DNA from: a virus
Reading direction: 5' to 3' (one strand)
IMG/VR virus record: IMGVR_UViG_3300047472_000155
Span: 32,001 to 96,000 of that record
DNA: 64,000 nt
Made by a program: the position numbers and the translations under genes. The notes below the pieces were generated by a model. The model searched no databases. It was not told the DNA's origin and was given only the letters and a program-made list of their open reading frames with translations. Below, piece by piece: positions 15,342-28,293 of this stretch; the first letter of the stretch is position 1, and each line of letters starts with the position of its first letter.

Positions 15342-16436
15342 ATGGGTAAAGCATTGCTTGATAATATAGTGATTTTGAATGAACGTAATAAGGGTAAAAA
15401 AGAATTTAAAAACGTAGGTAAAGATATATATAACTTTCTTTACCGCATCAACATTGGACATGGAACAGAACTTCAAGGCACATCAGAAGCTTACGAAAGA
15501 GATATCAAACGTTTCTTTCAATTGATGTGGGGCATTAAAGATTTGAATAAACTTGAAATTGAAGATTTGTATATCCTTCCATCAGATATAGAAAAATTTC
15601 AGACATATCTTGTTAATATGGGATTTAAAAGCAATACCGTAGATCGCAATATTAATGCAGTAAGATCGTTGTATAATTATTTTGAAGAAAATGAGTATCG
15701 TTATAGATATGAAGATGAATGGGTATATATTTCTTCGAGAGTATTTAAAGGTATTAAAAGAGTTGATATTGACGATAAGTCAAGTTATGGATCATTTACT
15801 TTCGAGGAAATGTCCGAAATGATTGAACTTGCAAAAACTCTTGACAATGGAGAAACTAAGTCATTGGCTATTGAATTGGCAAGTATCACTTCCTTTCGCC
15901 TTGAAGCTATTGCAAATATGGAAAGAGGTGATTTTTTCTTCAAAAACAACACATGGGTTGCACGTACTTATGACAAAGGAAAAGAGAATATAAAAGCTAT
16001 TCGTACAGATTTATATGAAAGACTTATTGCTAATGCCGATGAAGGTGACAGAGAAAAACTATTTGATTGCACATCAAGAACATTGCAGCGTACAGTTGAT
16101 ACTTTAATCAATATGATGAAACTTGATAAAGCTGAAAGAAATCTTACCTTCCACTCCATCAAGAAATACGGTATCAATGAAGTTGCTATGATGACAAAAG
16201 GTGATATGAAAGCTATTTCACTTCAAGGTAATCATGCATCATTTGAAACTACTATGAAGTATTACCTTGCATACACGGAAGACTATTCTAAAATGCCTTG
16301 CTTAATGATTGGTCAACCAATTGATACATCTCCCATTCAAGAGCTAGATAGAGAGCAGTTGTTAAATCTATTCATGGAGGCTAGTCGGTCCACTCAATAC
16401 GAATTGCTCCACTTGTTGAATACGCAATCCGAATAA
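15342..16436 (+). CDS. Tyrosine recombinase/integrase-family protein
   Basis: Core-binding region (NTVDR.I.AVRSLYNY); catalytic pattern SFR, DKGK, FHSIKK, GNH, KYY (HxxK instead of HxxR). Confidence 0.88.
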   Translation: MGKALLDNIVILNERNKGKKEFKNVGKDIYNFLYRINIGHGTELQGTSEAYERDIKRFFQLMWGIKDLNKLEIEDLYILPSDIEKFQTYLVNMGFKSNTVDRNINAVRSLYNYFEENEYRYRYEDEWVYISSRVFKGIKRVDIDDKSSYGSFTFEEMSEMIELAKTLDNGETKSLAIELASITSFRLEAIANMERGDFFFKNNTWVARTYDKGKENIKAIRTDLYERLIANADEGDREKLFDCTSRTLQRTVDTLINMMKLDKAERNLTFHSIKKYGINEVAMMTKGDMKAISLQGNHASFETTMKYYLAYTEDYSKMPCLMIGQPIDTSPIQELDREQLLNLFMEASRSTQYELLHLLNTQSE

Positions 16437-16628: not shown

Positions 16629-17384
16629 TTATTTTGCAATCGAATATCCATTTGCTATGCCGTTTTCTCCGGCAAATTTCTGTCTATCTATGTTTACTAA
16701 TCCACTACGTTGTAGTTCATCAACATACTTTCTAAAGGTCGGTTCTGACATCAATACCTCATCCTTAATGCTTCTCGATGGTATTTTACATACCTTTAAT
16801 CCTCCTTGTTTGTATTTGATGTATCCGTAAATATAAAATGCATTGACTCCCAAGTCTTTGTTGTTCATGCATTGTTCAAATATTTCATAATTTATTTTGT
16901 GCGTGTTTTCTACTTCATAAAAGGTTCCATCTAGGATTTTGTCCTTTTCTGAGTCGGGATTTCTAAAAAAACTTTTCACAGGGTACTTGACTTTATAGTT
17001 CAAATCCTGTATAATAGTCTTATAGCCAGTTAATGTCCTGTGATCATCTATTAACATAAATTCAACAAACCCATTCTCCATTGTCCATGATATCGGATAA
17101 CTTGACGTTGTACGTGTATAACCCATTGTATCAAGTATCCCATTGTTCTTTATAATATAATCTATCTTCTTTTCGACTGGAGATTTTTGAAGTTTCTGCT
17201 TGATTGTTGCTTGAGTAATCTTCTCGTCTTTGTACCATTCACAATATCTATATAGGTACGTTACATAATAGTAATATGAGTACGTAAATGCATTGTGCTT
17301 CGCTGATGATATGTTTTCACGTATATCTTTGAATATCTCATTTGGAACGTAAATGTGATCTTTTATTTTTTGTTTAGTCTTCAC
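16629..17384 (-). CDS. Putative replication initiator / wHTH DNA-binding protein
   Basis: YVPNEIF N-terminus; C-terminal wHTH (AFYIYGYIK..IKDEVLMSEPTFRKYVDELQRSGLV); abuts the inverted-repeat element. Confidence 0.55.
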   Translation of the reverse strand: MKTKQKIKDHIYVPNEIFKDIRENISSAKHNAFTYSYYYYVTYLYRYCEWYKDEKITQATIKQKLQKSPVEKKIDYIIKNNGILDTMGYTRTTSSYPISWTMENGFVEFMLIDDHRTLTGYKTIIQDLNYKVKYPVKSFFRNPDSEKDKILDGTFYEVENTHKINYEIFEQCMNNKDLGVNAFYIYGYIKYKQGGLKVCKIPSRSIKDEVLMSEPTFRKYVDELQRSGLVNIDRQKFAGENGIANGYSIAK

Positions 17385-17818: not shown

Positions 17819-17888
17819 TTACTAGCAAGACAGTGAATTGATTTTAAAGGGTGAGATGCCTTCACATATGAAGAGGATGTTTTTAATA

Positions 17889-18782
17889 ATGAATAATAAA
17901 GTAAGTGTAGATGTTAAAAATAATTATAATGTTCAAACACCGTTGTCAAATGTATTGGCAAGTGTATTCTCTTACAATGACAATCATACCGTCAGAACTT
18001 TAATGATTGACAATGAACCGTGGTTTGTTGCAAAAGATGTGTGTGATATCTTAGAAATATCGAAATATCGTGACGCATTAAGTAGATTGGATGATGATGA
18101 AAGGGGGTCGGTATTAGTGGATACCCCTGGAGGAAAGCAAGAAATGGGCGCTGTTAATGAATCTGGATTATATTCGATTATCATGAAGAGTCGAAAACCA
18201 GAAGCTAAGGTATTTAAAAAATGGATTACACATGAGGTTATACCTTCTATTCGAAAAAGTGGAAAATATGATGTAGTAAATACCATTCAGGATTCATACA
18301 TGATTCAAAATCCAGTTGAACGGGCTAAGGCGTGGATTGTAGAACAGGAAAAACTTCAATTAGCAGAATTACAAGTTAAAGAATTGGAGATTGTAGTAGT
18401 AAAAAAAGATGAAGTAATTTTAGAGAAAGATGAAATGATTCAAGAATTAGAACCAGATGCCATATATGCAAGAGACATGTTGATTGGGAATGGTCTTTCA
18501 TTAGCAACTGACATAGCAAAGATTTATGGAATGAGTTCTCATAAATTTAATAAATTACTTAATACACTCAACGTGCAATACAAACTAAAAGGTTCTAATC
18601 ATTGGTTGTTATATAGTAAATACGATGGGCTTGGCTACACTCATTTAAAAAGTACTAGGATAGAAACAAAATATGACTCCAAGACTAGTTACACTATGAT
18701 GTGGACTGAAAAAGGGAAAAGGTTCCTTTATGATTTATTATCTGAATTAAATATTTATCCAGATATTGTAAGTGTAAAATAA
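17889..18782 (+). CDS. BRO-N / KilA-C phage antirepressor
   Basis: EPWFVAKDVCDIL..VNESGLYSII..SRKPEAK.FKKWITHEVIPSIRKSG; C-terminal WTEKGKRFLY. Confidence 0.92.
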   Translation: MNNKVSVDVKNNYNVQTPLSNVLASVFSYNDNHTVRTLMIDNEPWFVAKDVCDILEISKYRDALSRLDDDERGSVLVDTPGGKQEMGAVNESGLYSIIMKSRKPEAKVFKKWITHEVIPSIRKSGKYDVVNTIQDSYMIQNPVERAKAWIVEQEKLQLAELQVKELEIVVVKKDEVILEKDEMIQELEPDAIYARDMLIGNGLSLATDIAKIYGMSSHKFNKLLNTLNVQYKLKGSNHWLLYSKYDGLGYTHLKSTRIETKYDSKTSYTMMWTEKGKRFLYDLLSELNIYPDIVSVK

Positions 18783-20489: not shown

Positions 20490-21041
20490 TTATCCAGCGC
20501 TTCTTTTTATATCTACCTCTACATTTCCAGTTGAAGATACAGTATGAGTTACTTCCTTTACTTCATCCTCTGCAAACATCTTTCGCGCTTTCTCCATTAC
20601 CTTTAAAATGTACGTGTAACTCTCTTCTAACTCTTTACGCTCATTTGCCATGTCACGCATGATTCGTGATTGTTCTGTCAATCTCTTGTCTTGATCAATT
20701 ACTTTTTGATGTAACGTTTTATTTTGCTTTTGTAAATTTTTTAGAAGATCAACAAATCCATCCATTGTTTCTCTTACTTTATTGGCAAGTGTGAAAGATG
20801 TGTTAGATGTATATGCTTCTAATGTAGACTCATCTAGTCCGGTTTCACTTTCCGACATTAAATGTTTGTACCATCGGTTACGACACATATAGAATGTGAT
20901 GCCTAATTCGTTTGCCGCTTCTTTAAATGCTCTTGTTGCACTATTAGGATACTTGGTAACAAGCCTTCTCAGAACCGAATCTTCCTCATCTGTCCAATCG
21001 TGATTAGCACTTTTTTTCTTTATTTCCACAGAAGAGATCAC
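20490..21041 (-). CDS. RsfA-like (SANT/Myb) transcriptional regulator with coiled coil
   Basis: WTDEEDSVL..AFKEAANELG.T..C..RW followed by a heptad region. Confidence 0.75.
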   Translation of the reverse strand: MISSVEIKKKSANHDWTDEEDSVLRRLVTKYPNSATRAFKEAANELGITFYMCRNRWYKHLMSESETGLDESTLEAYTSNTSFTLANKVRETMDGFVDLLKNLQKQNKTLHQKVIDQDKRLTEQSRIMRDMANERKELEESYTYILKVMEKARKMFAEDEVKEVTHTVSSTGNVEVDIKRSAG

Positions 21042-21608
21042 CCATCCCTATATAGTATTTGTTAGCCATGTTTACTAATTATAGGATACACAACTTGAAC
21101 ATATTAGTCAAGCTATTGGTAAACGGCTAAATGTGTCTAGGTATAATATGGGAAATGGTAGGTAAATATTTGGAACAGGTTTCAGAACACAGGGTACTCT
21201 ATATATCGAAAAGCTATAAAAATGTTATAACTAAGCCCCCCTACCTAGTGTGCATATAATAGATGACATTACATGGTTTTATTTTTTAACGTAGAGTAGG
21301 GTGAAAAGTAGATGTCTGAACATCTTGACGATTTTTTATGTGAAAATAATAGCATGGATATCTAATTGAAATGTGAGTACATATAAGTGGTTTACCGTTA
21401 AAGAGCAAAGTCGTCTGCGTTAAAAATAAAACGTGCGAAAATAGGGTATGTTGAGATGTGAGTATGTTTGTAGTTGTTCAGTAGTGTAATGTGATGGGAT
21501 TATAGTGTGATACAAATTGAATGGAAATAAAGTAATCGAGCGCAATTGCAGTGCCCAGGGGTATATGGAAATTGAATCCAGATCTGCATGTTATAACCTA
21601 CCCCCGGC

Positions 21609-21636
21609 ATGTCGTGGAATTAACGTTCCGCGACAT
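21609..21636. repeat. GC-rich palindrome next to a C-tract, near a strand-composition switch
   Basis: ATGTCGTGGAA-TTAACG-TTCCGCGACAT directly after TGTTATAACCTACCCCCGG. Confidence 0.6.
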
Positions 21637-21820
21637 TAATCGAGAATATACATTATATTGTGTAAAATACCATATTTTGGCTAATATTTGATAATTGCTA
21701 AATAATGGATATTTTTCATTTTTTTAAAAAATTTTAAAATTTTAAAAATTGCATATATTCAAGCTCACACAACGGAGTGATATAACACCAATCGCATGAT
21801 GCAAGACACCCTCACCACTA

Positions 21821-22298
21821 TGCACAACTATATTGCACACAATCTAATTTTATATTATTCAATTTATTACTATATTATCATCAACAATTCACATTGCAAC
21901 AATTCACATTCCCACAATATACCCAACATGCACATATATCTCACTCAATCAAATAATGCACAATATCCATGCAATACACACAATCTAATCGTCAATATGT
22001 ATACAATCCATACGATAGAGCTAGACATCAATCATAGAAATCAATCATAGACATCAATACGAGATAATCATACATAATTCAATCTAACACCATTTAATTG
22101 TATAAAATAGATGATGCACACATACATATCATGCACAATTCAATCACTCAATATTTAATTGTGCACAATTGAATCAATACCAATATAATTAATAGCCATA
22201 TAATGATATTCAATGTAATCAACTCCGATTATATTTCTAAAAACCGTAAATGCGTATATATGCAATACTATGTCAATATACCTAATATATTATGCACA
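21821..22298. repeat. Eight TGCACA hexamers, including the palindrome AATTGTGCACAATT
   Basis: TGCACA at 21821, 21834, 21929, 21957, 22115, 22132, 22162, 22293. Confidence 0.65.
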
Positions 22299-22325
22299 CA
22301 TAGGCATATATTGTATGATCTAGGA

Positions 22326-23983
22326 TGTAAGCGTTTAATTTTAAGGTATAAGGCGTATATCATCAATACCTAACAATACCATTACCCTATAGGATAGAGT
22401 GTCTTATACGCAATCCTACCATGACATATATTATGTATATTCTTACAATATAATACATATGATATACTCACTATGATATTATGTATATGTATATATCTAT
22501 ATGTATATATCTATGTGTTAATATCATATTGATAGTAATGATATGATACATACAACATGTATCTATCTATGTGATACTATCTATATGATAATATGTATGT
22601 GTATGTATCTATATGTTACTATCTACATATACATATCATATTGTTATTATCATAATGTTAGTATCTATGTGGATATATGACGATACTTGCAACATGCGAG
22701 CAATATGATATCGACCTAGCATATAGCAACGTGATATATATAGTACATACATATGAGCACTCACACATATAAGATAAAGTCAATAGGGAACATATATACC
22801 CATCTATATGCGTTACAATGCATTGTAATGGGCAAGTTGTTTACTCATTGTTTATACATTGATTTAAAACGATAGAAAGCGCTTACTTGGGAAATAGTGC
22901 ACACCTACGCCATTTGCAAACGCTTACATATTAGAAATGGACAATTATTTCCCAAAACGCATGTATAAGTATTCATTATTAGTGTATATGAAAGCGGTTA
23001 AATGCATGATTATGCATAGAAGCATACGAATGTATGATAAAATGAGGATAAAGTGCTAATATATCAATTGATCTAAATAATGGATAAGTTTTTAATTTTC
23101 AATCTAATATTGATATATGTTTGACTTATTGCTGACTGAAAGTGCTTACATACATAAAATGTAAAATATGTATGTAATTAATATGAAAACGCTTACATTT
23201 TCGGATCGCAAGATATGTAAATAAATATATAAATTACTATAAAATGTATATTTTTATTATTTAAAAAAGTCAAGTAGTAAATTGATAATTATGTGAACAT
23301 TATGTGAACATGCAATTAATCAATTGGTATAATCATTGAGATATTCCGTATAGAGTAAATACACACAATTGATCCATAGAGGGTATTAGGGTTCCGTATT
23401 TTCAATTCCACGGCACAAGTAGTGTACTTGTTAGGGGTAGAATATAAAGCCTCTTAGAAGGGCAAATAAAGCGCTTACATTTGACATACATTTATGTGTG
23501 TTAAAGTGTAGTCAAATAGCAAAATGTATAAATATACATGATATACGTTGCGTTATTGATCCGCAATAATTACCGAACATTCAAAAAAGCCTTATGTATC
23601 AACGATCTGATTCGCTAACTTTCTGATAGCTTACATAATAAATCTGATTTATCGCACATATAAAAATTTTCTATTCCCTTATAGAATAAGGGTTTTAGGA
23701 CTTATGTAAAAATATGTTTATGCATACCCGAATATAATTGTGTCTAAAATATGTACGTTTATTCATTTAAATTTTAAAAACCTATTGACATTTAAAAATC
23801 ATTTGATCTAGCATTTGCAAAACACGAACATTCTGACCAACAGTGGCATAGTTTATGAGCTAAATCCGAACATTCGAGTATATAAAGCGCTTACAATAAA
23901 ATATCCTAAAAATATACGAACATAAATTCGTATATTGACATCTGAAATAATATGTGATTTTAATTAAAATGAAAGCGTTTTAT
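22326..23983. promoter_or_regulatory. Array of nine CcpA cre-like sites
   Basis: TGTAAGCGTTTAAT 22326, AGAAAGCGCTTACT 22874, TGCAAACGCTTACA 22915, TGAAAGCGGTTAAA 22989, TGAAAGTGCTTACA 23137, TGAAAACGCTTACA 23184, ATAAAGCGCTTACA 23466 and 23882, TGAAAGCGTTTTAT 23970; consensus TGWAANCGNTNWCA. Confidence 0.75.
22962..23538. promoter_or_regulatory. Three ARG-box-like palindromes (ArgR/AhrC)
   Basis: TGTATAAGTATTCA 22962, TGCATGATTATGCA 23003, TGTATAAATATACA 23525. Confidence 0.5.
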
Positions 23984-24015
23984 TGACAATATATGTAAAA
24001 AACATACGAACAAAT
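23568..24015 (+). promoter_or_regulatory. Five PurBox-like CGAACAWW motifs (PurR)
   Basis: CGAAC at 23574, 23825, 23867, 23917, 24007; AAAACACGAACATT at 23819-23832. Confidence 0.55.
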
Positions 24016-24056
24016 GGGAACAAATTGTGAATATTGTGTGTCATATCTTTATGCAC

Positions 24057-24086
24057 TTGACATGCAATCCTACTATGAAATAGTAT
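24057..24086 (+). promoter_or_regulatory. Sigma-A promoter for the large RNA / early region
   Basis: TTGACA-N18-TAGTAT; further TTGACA at 23481, 23785, 23935, 23983. Confidence 0.65.
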
Positions 24087-24094
24087 GGAGAAGC

Positions 24095-24802
24095 AAACAA
24101 GACAAAACACACCTAGAGCACGAATGAGTGACCGACATTAATAGGTCGCACACGAACGGACACAATGACGGATAAGCTACCGACACACGAATAAGCCTAG
24201 CTACTAGAATTTTAGTAACTAACTTATGGTAAGTGTTAGATAAAATGAGGGTGAATAGGTTGAACACGTTATGCAATGCTAACACGCCTATGAACTATGG
24301 CGAATGACCATAGAAGAAAGGGAATGGTGAGAAGCCCAAAGCGGCATGTATGCACGAAAGGTCATTCGATATGATAACCTAGACGCTCATACATTGATTG
24401 CATTTAATATCATTGGTTCCTTGACAATCTAACGGTTTATCGCATACCTAGACTACGCCGAAAGGCAATGTCAAAAGCGATACATTGTGTGAGGTCTATG
24501 TGCCTAGTAGTGTATAGGGTTAAGGGCAACAAAATGACGAAAGGTTAGTCAATGGTACGTGCATTATGAGCGTACATGATACACATGTAAGGCATTGCGT
24601 ACATGTGTATGGCATAAACTAATTTAGTAACGTTTTGGATACCATGAGAGTAATACATGAAGGACAATGCCATGGATAGCGTACTATCGTTAACTCACAA
24701 TGTAAAAGGAATAATCGTTGTTCAAGATAGTGCGAAATTCGTAGTATCTTGAACAACGTTGTAAGCAACTAATATAATGTAAGTTAGTTGTTTACAACGT
24801 TG
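24095..24802 (+). ncRNA. Candidate large structured RNA (~600-700 nt)
   Basis: No ORF; higher GC; nested long-range helices CGAATGACC/GGTCATTCG, ACGCTCATA/TATGAGCGT, CATTGATTG/TAGTCAATG, CCTTGAC/GTTAAGG, TATCGC/GCGATA; GCC-GAAA-GGC tetraloop. Confidence 0.78.
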
Positions 24803-24828
24803 TACATACAACGAATAAAAACATTGGA

Positions 24829-25494
24829 GTGATTGAAATGCATTTGCCACAACTTAAAGTGTTAGACCGTAAAACGATTATCAATGTACCAATTCTATGC
24901 GGCACAAAAGAATTTGACCAATATTCGGAAATTAACTCTCTTACGGCATCGGGTGAAACGTTTAAAAGTACTAGTTCAACATCAAGCAAATATAATCTTG
25001 CTTCGGTACACGCTTGGGTCAATATTGACCAATTACAAGCCGATGGAATTATTACTAAATTAGGTTTCGGAAGATGGGAAACCGAATTGTCGGAAAAGAA
25101 CGGTATACATTACACAATGAAAATTGATGAAACCGGAGAGGGAAAATATGTAAAAGGTAAGATCACTTACAATATTGTAGCGGTTGAAGTTAATGGTAAA
25201 AAATACACCGTCAAAAACGATCACAAATTGCCAAATGGCACGGAAATGCAAACAAGTTTCGAAATGACTTATAATGGTAAAAGTGCTAAAAATTCCACAT
25301 TGTTCGGATTCTTGCGCCGCATTATCTACAATGGATTACTTCAATTTGACAAGGTTGATCATCTTGAATTGATGGTAGCTAAACCTAAAACACCATCAAA
25401 ACCTAAAGCCAAACCTAAAGCGGCAAGCGTAGATATTCCAAAAGGCAAGGGTGCGGACAAACAAGAGAGTGCACAAAAAGCCGCAAATGAATGA
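24829..25494 (+). CDS. Hypothetical early protein with Lys/Pro/Ala-rich tail
   Basis: 221-aa ORF, GGAG RBS, first ORF after the large RNA. Confidence 0.75.
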   Translation: MIEMHLPQLKVLDRKTIINVPILCGTKEFDQYSEINSLTASGETFKSTSSTSSKYNLASVHAWVNIDQLQADGIITKLGFGRWETELSEKNGIHYTMKIDETGEGKYVKGKITYNIVAVEVNGKKYTVKNDHKLPNGTEMQTSFEMTYNGKSAKNSTLFGFLRRIIYNGLLQFDKVDHLELMVAKPKTPSKPKAKPKAASVDIPKGKGADKQESAQKAANE

Positions 25495-27960: not shown

Positions 27961-28293
27961 ATGAGCAATTACGTGGACAACAGACGGAAATACTTGGATA
28001 AAGTTGTAGAATTTCAGAATGAAGTTGAAAAGATCATGTTTGAAATTGATCTTATCAACTTGGAAAAAGTAAAATATATGAACATGAGAGATCAGACAAT
28101 TCACTTCCGTCTGACAATTTGCAAAGCATTTATTCATGAAGTATTAAGGTTGAATCAAATTCTTGAGCCTAAGATGAAAGAGCTTCAGGAAATGTGGTAC
28201 AAATACGATACAATGCGGTATCAACCGAATAAACAAGAGCGCCTCAGTGCAATGATTGAGGGGATGTATTCGCCAGAAAGAAATATTGGATAA
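27961..28293 (+). CDS. Hypothetical protein
   Basis: AAGGA RBS before MSNYVD. Confidence 0.65.
   Translation: MSNYVDNRRKYLDKVVEFQNEVEKIMFEIDLINLEKVKYMNMRDQTIHFRLTICKAFIHEVLRLNQILEPKMKELQEMWYKYDTMRYQPNKQERLSAMIEGMYSPERNIG

Follow-up and report, generated by a model that had tools for sequence, protein, structure and literature searches.

Introduction

To our knowledge, few cases have been described in which a phage reads the physiology of its host through host transcription factors, and each of them involves one regulator. The phages phi29 and Nf carry Spo0A boxes near their early promoters (PMC2731898), and in the staphylococcal prophage PhiSa3XN the host protein CcpA acts directly, in a glucose-responsive manner, at the cI promoter (PMC12607152). 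CtrA sites are found in phages of Alphaproteobacteria (PMC9437464) and LexA boxes in GIL01 (PMC4551915). Here we describe a gene-free control region in a large uncultured Bacillus-type phage, represented by a viral contig of 166.8 kb that is rated complete (IMG/VR record IMGVR_UViG_3300047472_000155). The window that we analysed is a stretch of 64,000 nucleotides (nt), bases 32001-96000 of this contig. Open reading frame (ORF) lists place the gene-free region at 21042..24843 of the window, and positions below are window positions unless the contig is named. The region holds an array of sites that resemble the catabolite-responsive element (cre) recognised by CcpA and the PurBox recognised by PurR. 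Judging from the sequence, the right 1.3 kb of the region may well be a cis-regulatory module where host metabolic regulators dock, and the phage probably links its early promoters to the metabolism of its host.

The PurR operator of Bacillus subtilis consists of two inverted boxes with a spacer of 16–17 nt, and PurR protects DNA well beyond the boxes and wraps it (PMC8789054). Phosphoribosyl pyrophosphate (PRPP) releases PurR, guanosine tetra- and pentaphosphate ((p)ppGpp) hold it on DNA, and approximately 1000–3000 copies of the protein are present per cell for 15 chromosomal sites (PMC8789054).

The region resembles phi29 and Nf in that a phage holds several sites for host global regulators near its early promoters, its development following host physiology. 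It differs from them in the regulators concerned, which are those of carbon and purine metabolism here and the sporulation master regulator there. In addition, phi29 and Nf are small podoviruses that have no multi-kilobase gene-free module, and helical phasing across relatives is unreported for them. The likeness to PhiSa3XN, where CcpA acts on a switch promoter of the phage, is that one of the cre-like sites here lies across a candidate promoter directed towards a regulator gene. The staphylococcal case concerns a single promoter with experimental proof, whereas here there are about nine predicted sites in addition to PurBoxes. One of the phage boxes is identical at every position to a box of the B. 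subtilis pur operon, and in both systems the boxes lie upstream of a -35 hexamer. In contrast to the two inverted boxes of B. subtilis, the phage has five direct boxes, which are 42, 50, 90–101 and approximately 250 nt apart. The CtrA phages and GIL01 likewise reuse host regulator sites to time or defer lytic growth, but they involve other phyla and other regulators, with one regulator per phage and no combined array.

Host-regulator sites in phage genomes are thus of a known kind. What is new here is the combination of carbon and purine sites, and their phased, enhancer-like layout in a multi-kilobase gene-free region. If this reading is correct, one enhancer-like module would bring together two nutritional regulators of the host and perhaps a third. 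Because PurR senses PRPP and (p)ppGpp, its sites would give the phage direct access to the stringent response and the nucleotide supply of the host, which are the resources a phage needs most.

Results and Discussion

Relatives of the gene-free region

Three uncultured sequences related to the region were found through the proteins that flank it. L003 is an IMG/VR contig of 170.5 kb whose flank proteins are 57–61% identical to those of the window, L029 is a Logan contig (79–82% identical) and L031 is a partial Logan contig close to L003. Below, "three phages" refers to the window, L003 and L029, and "four phages" adds L031. A gene-free stretch of 3.6–3.7 kb is present and collinear in all three relatives at 67–78% nucleotide identity (73–78% for L029, 67–74% for L003), and gene calling in L029 left the homologous 3.7 kb empty.

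The original prediction, made from the window alone, had described approximately 1.7 kb without a credible ORF (22326-24020). This stretch is indeed ORF-free, but the real extent is larger, at 3.8 kb. None of the ORFs of at least 25 amino acids (aa) inside 22326-24020 is conserved across all three phages. The remaining genome, unlike this region, is tightly packed with genes.

Enrichment and conservation of cre-like sites

The cre consensus strings were checked in the literature (Weickert-Chambliss 14-mer and Miwa 15-mer; PMC10864463, PMC9598941), and 500 dinucleotide-preserving shuffles of 22326-24020 were used as controls. At up to two mismatches from the 14-mer there are 10 sites in this stretch, compared with 1.73 +/- 1.28 in the shuffled sequences, none of which reaches 10. 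The density of such sites in the rest of the genome would lead to an expectation of 2.3, and the motif is therefore enriched over both of the backgrounds that had been proposed for comparison. The nine cre-like 14-mers of the original prediction are all present where it had placed them, with starts at 22326 (minus strand), 22874, 22915, 22989, 23137, 23184, 23466, 23882 and 23970, and there is a weak one at 23622 (minus strand). Two of them had been called full consensus matches. The site at 23184 is a full match to the Weickert-Chambliss 14-mer, while that at 22915 fully matches the Miwa 15-mer but has one mismatch to the 14-mer. By mismatch class, one site in the window is perfect, three have one mismatch and five or six have two. 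In L003 three are perfect, and three of the four perfect cre matches in its whole genome fall within the homologous region. A profile of 36–41 cre-like sites varies at the positions where the consensus permits variation.

Four of the cre-like sites are positionally conserved. The site at 22915..22928 is identical in three phages and overlaps the last -10 base and the start region of a candidate leftward promoter, PL1 (22928..22955, minus strand), which was found in an alignment of the minus strands. PL1 has a -35 hexamer at 22955-22950 that is invariant, a 16-nt spacer and a -10 hexamer at 22933-22928 that is good in the window and L003 and poor in L029. The site at 23466..23479 lies within a 32-nt block that is identical in four phages. 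A conserved sigma-A-type promoter, P1, lies at 24057..24086 (plus strand). From the start of the cre-like site at 23970..23983 to the -10 hexamer of P1 is exactly 111 nt, and in all four phages a site starts at this distance upstream. P1 has a perfect -35 hexamer, an 18-nt spacer and its -10 hexamer at 24081-24086. The copy at the 111-nt position is weakest in the window and perfect in L003 and L031, in both of which the site found there is not an aligned counterpart of the window copy. The sites at 23137 (one mismatch) and 23184 (perfect), which together span 23137..23197, are situated in a variable spacer and are not positionally conserved, a case of site turnover. Some cre sites have been gained or lost between phages, and the total stays at 9–11. 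Apart from the sites on PL1 and at 111 nt from the P1 -10 hexamer, the cre-like sites have no assignable promoter.

Outside the window, 3.8 kb to the left of its first base, non-coding DNA of the contig holds a further perfect cre match (bases 28217-28230). A good sigma-A promoter is situated there, and the match takes up its spacer and overlaps its -10 hexamer.

PurBox-like sites

The PurBox 13-mer consensus was taken from PMC3547956. The stretch 22326-24020 contains two perfect matches to it, and these are the only two in the 166.8 kb genome on either strand. Five PurBox-like cores had been described as co-oriented, and all five are confirmed on the plus strand, at 23574, 23825, 23867, 23917 and 24007. 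PurBox 1 (23569..23581) and PurBox 3 (23862..23874) are the perfect consensus matches, the latter being invariant in four phages. PurBox 2 (23820..23832) is also invariant in four phages and matches PurBox1 of B. subtilis purE at 13 of 13 positions (PMC8789054 Fig. S12), which bears out the match to the pur operon PurBox that the original prediction had put at 23819. PurBox 4 (23912..23924) has two mismatches and lies 50 nt from box 3 in all phages, and PurBox 5 (24002..24014) has three mismatches and is followed by a related half-site. The spacings in the window are 251, 42, 50 and 90 nt, the last of which ranges over 90–101 nt across the phages. In the Lactococcus type of PurR site, a single oriented box is found at a fixed position upstream of the start site. 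We know of no report of PurR sites or of a PurBox array in a phage.

Aligned across the four phages, DNA of 67–78% identity is interrupted by invariant blocks at the cre-like and PurBox-like sites. When 7-mers and 8-mers are counted without bias towards any motif, two word families, the cre-like and the PurBox-like, head the over-represented words in each of the three phages, with the rest of the genome as reference. Both classes thus match a published consensus and are kept in the three relatives, and on these grounds their assignment as cre-like and PurBox-like is upheld.

ARG boxes and other regulator patterns

Three palindromes had been assigned to AhrC/ArgR. They are present, at 22962, 23003 and 23525, but the assignment is weak, since the 18-mer consensus forms (E. 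coli, B. subtilis and Streptomyces; PMC5291005), which usually occur in pairs, are not enriched in the window. The loose palindrome occurs three times, compared with 0.21 in the shuffled sequences. Even with two mismatches allowed, the E. coli and B. subtilis forms are absent from the window, and the Streptomyces form is matched at one site with one mismatch. In the relatives the E. coli form is found once or twice with one mismatch, and the enrichment is marginal. The three aligned ARG-like positions are conserved, and the palindrome at 23525..23538 is one mismatch from the E. coli 18-mer in the relatives.

Altogether 14 Bacillota regulator patterns were scanned, twelve of them in addition to cre and PurBox. 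Enrichment in all three phages is confined to cre and PurBox; the patterns for Rex, Spo0A, CodY, Fur, TnrA, DnaA, SinR and Crp/Fnr show no consistent enrichment. Two other identities for the box core were considered and rejected. A LexA site would call for a full SOS box, which is absent, and the relatives do not keep the near-match at 23917. Nor does the core fit the -35 element of a sigma factor of the extracytoplasmic function type made by the phage, since the alignment shows no shared downstream element and the phage encodes no sigma domain; the ORF that stands where Tsamsavirus has its sigma gene bears no relation to that gene.

Spacing and helical phasing

The sites fall into two modules separated by a variable spacer, which measures 425, 360 and 320 nt between anchors. 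The left module (22776..23060) contains cre-like sites at 22874, 22915 and 22989 and ARG-like palindromes at 22962 and 23003, with a 10-nt inverted repeat flanking the middle cre. Its six anchors, which extend over 259 nt, keep the same distances in three phages with zero indels, in DNA in which approximately one quarter of the positions differ. Its cre-like starts are 41 and 74 nt apart (approximately four and seven helical turns) in all three.

The right module (23450-24095) contains the cre-like site in the 32-nt invariant block, an ARG-like palindrome, the five PurBoxes and one to three more cre-like sites, and it ends at promoter P1. All five of its indels of at least 5 nt are 9–11 nt long, which is about one helical turn, and the distances from the PurBoxes to the -10 hexamer therefore step by 10–11 nt between phages. 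From box 2 to the P1 -10 hexamer these distances are 256, 267, 277 and 287 nt across four phages, and from the box 5 core they are 74, 74, 85 and 85 nt, a difference of one turn. If indel lengths were uniform over 5–15 nt, the chance that all five would be 9–11 nt is approximately 0.0015, a rough estimate from few events. Indels in the transcribed leader and in the variable spacer are not phased. Folding of the right module with RNAalifold gives compensatory changes in 6 of 69 pairs and a penalising covariation term of +1.6. From this pattern the array behaves as protein-binding DNA and not as RNA.

Regulators that may read the array

The sites could be read by proteins of the phage or of the host. 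Six-frame family searches of the whole phage found no LacI DNA-binding, Peripla_BP_3, PuR_N, Arg_repressor or sigma-70 region 2 or region 4 domain. A LacI- or PurR-type binder would therefore have to be host-derived, and the phage LacI-family protein that had been named as an alternative binder is not encoded.

The original prediction had also suggested that the array wires host metabolic status into the early promoter. The fixed or phased distances to P1, and the cre on the -10 and start region of the candidate PL1, fit this suggestion. In the mechanism that we propose, CcpA in complex with HPr-Ser-P, which is formed at high glycolytic flux, would bind the cre sites. At 22915 it would repress PL1, which leads towards the RsfA-like gene; repression is predicted here because the cre covers the -10 and start region, as at the cI promoter of PhiSa3XN. 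Other cre sites would be occupied upstream of P1. PurR would nucleate on the phased boxes upstream of P1 and spread or wrap over the promoter, as at the pur operon. P1 would be shut at low PRPP or high (p)ppGpp and released at high PRPP. Well-fed cells would then make the early transcript to the right and starved cells would withhold it, which in function would resemble the Spo0A boxes of phi29 (PMC2731898) and the CtrA deferment pathway (PMC9437464). The carbon and nucleotide status of the host would in this way set the leader RNA, the early operon and the divergent regulator gene. The module may represent the choice of the phage between active growth and quiescence, since the phage carries partition, recombinase and antirepressor genes.

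Several observations weigh against docking of host regulators at the array. The PurBoxes are direct repeats and not an inverted pair with a 16–17 nt spacer, and for this reason they fall outside the B. subtilis PurR operator class. All five are on the plus strand and none has an inverted partner on reading of the sequence. With this architecture, PurR is a putative binder of the boxes. The cre-like sites all have one orientation of a slightly asymmetric form, which a symmetric dimer would not need. Most sites are not beside a recognisable promoter, promoter-like matches are not enriched (38 in a generic scan, compared with 31.6) and the array contains few conserved canonical promoters. The phasing statistics are drawn from five indels, and only four related sequences are available, two of them close to each other. 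The host can be placed only to Bacillota, probably Bacillales. An RsfA-family Myb-like protein and several small proteins are encoded nearby and are possible alternative binders.

Alternative explanations

The last of these points leads to the alternative that proteins of the phage bind the sites as their operators and that the resemblance to cre and PurBox arose by convergence or chance. Such proteins could be the RepA-like regulator (16629-17384), the RsfA-like Myb protein or small early proteins. The gene for the Myb-like regulator directly flanks the region, and many small neighbouring proteins have no family. The cre-like sites share an orientation, the PurBoxes are directly repeated in the manner of iterons, and a second, separate and probably phage-specific operator pair is found at the promoter P2, described below. 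However, two unrelated motif classes fit published host consensus sequences, and for one of them the match is to a footprinted B. subtilis box, at 13 of 13 positions. A palindrome centred on CG is the signature of the LacI family, of which the phage encodes no member, and the other regulator patterns are not enriched. We regard this explanation as possible but rather unlikely.

Two further proposals retain the host regulators but have them drawn off the chromosome. The broader of the two, which we consider unlikely, is a metabolic takeover without a phage protein, in which phased arrays would draw off CcpA and PurR, feeding phage DNA synthesis, and would at the same time report host status to phage promoters. 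If this were true, host purine synthesis and alternative carbon use would be switched on as the phage genome replicates. The narrower, already put forward in the original prediction, is a DNA decoy, in which replicating genomes would soak up CcpA, PurR and perhaps AhrC, and host purine genes and catabolite-repressed genes would be derepressed with no phage protein. Each genome offers approximately nine cre-like and five PurBox-like sites, several of them far from promoters, and some of the cre-like sites turn over between phages at a constant total of 9–11. With the copy number of PurR and the 15 sites given above (PMC8789054), rough arithmetic suggests that a few hundred phage genomes could compete. 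On the other hand, a sink needs affinity and copy number, and not modules with zero indels, one-turn indels or a fixed 111-nt distance, which are requirements of a regulatory nucleoprotein complex. Single co-oriented PurBoxes are also expected to bind PurR less well than the inverted pairs of the chromosome. A pure decoy fits the phased architecture poorly and we think it distinctly unlikely.

The region could also be a replication origin or partition site, with the motifs forming part of an initiator or centromere complex by a tandem array of 14-nt repeats. This array (22459..22682, plus strand) has approximately 17 iteron-like units and adjoins the site array on its left. Three of its units make up 42 nt, or four helical turns, and it is kept as a repeat array in L003 and L029. 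By itself it could be an origin iteron or a centromere array. The interval of the original prediction takes it in without naming it. The low G+C content of the region (27–28%) and the divergent gene arrangement are in keeping with an origin, and further repeats with periods of 13–15 nt occur at 21880-22200. A tubulin-type partition gene and the RepA-like regulator are syntenic with the partition/recombinase module of Tsamsa-like phages, and phased sites would suit a wrapped complex. Origins and centromeres of the iteron type combine tandem direct repeats with an AT-rich unwinding region beside an initiator or partition gene. Here the 14-nt array is present and conserved, no initiator gene adjoins it and the tubulin-type gene is 8 kb away. 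Against an origin, the iteron array does not include the cre-like and PurBox-like sites, there is no enrichment of DnaA boxes, the turning point of the GC skew is approximately 9 kb to the left of the region, and the modules abut promoters. That the motifs belong to such a complex seems to us quite improbable.

It is very improbable that the array acts as RNA, as a long non-coding transcript whose repeated words bind protein or fold: the PurBox-like words are all on one strand and the adjoining 650 nt are a structured RNA, but the array shows no covariation, helical-turn indels are a property of DNA, and there is no Rfam match.

Neighbouring promoters and leader RNA

P1 appears to drive a structured leader or non-coding RNA (24093..24750, plus strand), as judged from covariation in the 650 nt downstream. 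RNAalifold on four phages finds compensatory changes in 28 of 120 pairs over the approximately 650 nt after P1, with a covariation term of -6. Rfam has no family for the leader RNA or for the array.

A second rightward promoter, P2 (24749..24778, plus strand), precedes the first gene. It is flanked by 10-nt perfect palindromes at 24753 and 24794, the whole element spanning 24749..24803. These palindromes are the only two copies in the genome and lie within a 23-nt inverted repeat. They probably form an operator pair of their own that is specific to the phage and that the Myb-like neighbour might bind.

PL1 points across the 14-nt repeat array to the RsfA-like regulator gene. A second candidate leftward promoter, PL2 (23717..23746, minus strand), has its -35 hexamer at 23746-23741 and its -10 hexamer at 23722-23717 and is kept in four phages. 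Approximately 25 nt after PL2 there is a hairpin (23676-23692) followed by a T-rich run. PL2 could give a minus-strand small RNA of approximately 50–60 nt from the region 23650-23746.

Flanking genes and lifestyle

To the left of the gene-free region is a gene for an RsfA-family regulator (20490..21041, minus strand), with a Myb-like DNA-binding domain (PF13921 and PF00249, above cut-off) and a coiled coil. Against TIGR02894 the protein scores E 3.5e-9, which is under the cut-off of that family, and the gene is conserved in L029 and L003. Outside this phage, the RsfA family is known for its part in the control of sporulation in endospore formers. To the right, the first gene of the rightward operon (24844..25494, plus strand) begins a long series of small genes. 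Family searches with its protein found no match, and many small proteins of this operon likewise have no family match.

Further left, the module order is a Dda-like helicase (minus strand), a tubulin/FtsZ-family partition gene (PF00091, 12767-14194), a tyrosine recombinase (15342-16436), the RepA-like regulator (16629-17384, minus strand) and an antirepressor (17838-18782). A 100-codon ORF precedes the tubulin-type gene, in the position expected from a tubR-tubZ pair. This order is syntenic with the partition/recombinase/regulator module of Tsamsavirus Skywalker. The synteny suggests an episomal prophage lifestyle, and the gene content is compatible with a temperate or episomal one. The contig also carries nine tRNA genes. 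Its helicases are approximately 40–44% identical to those of SPO1-like phages, Geobacillus virus E3 and Tsamsa-like giant Bacillus siphoviruses. The placement of the host in Bacillota is based on this likeness and on the Tsamsavirus synteny, with which the RsfA-family regulator and Atlas taxa agree.

Occurrence elsewhere

No match was obtained among GenBank phages for the 4 kb region (megablast and blastn), or among phages and plasmids for the first downstream protein. Just one relative came out of the IMG/VR scans, which used proteins, alignments and a 21-mer. A conserved 19-mer was found at 23 metagenome loci; none of these is similar to the region beyond the 19-mer, and they were therefore rejected as chance matches. 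A scan of species genomes gave one distant homologue of the first early protein, with 40% identity, on a contig of Chengkuizengella axinellae. Its ORF is longer (328 aa), the site array is not present upstream, and the contig is not a whole copy of this phage.

Other features of the gene-free region

The short tandem repeats at 21880-22200 are strongly strand-asymmetric and A+C-rich. A 46-codon ORF at 21551-21691 (plus strand) recurs in L029 with 73% identity and in L003 with 44% over 32 aa. No other small ORF of the gene-free region is kept in all three phages, and this one may be a small gene or simply conserved DNA.

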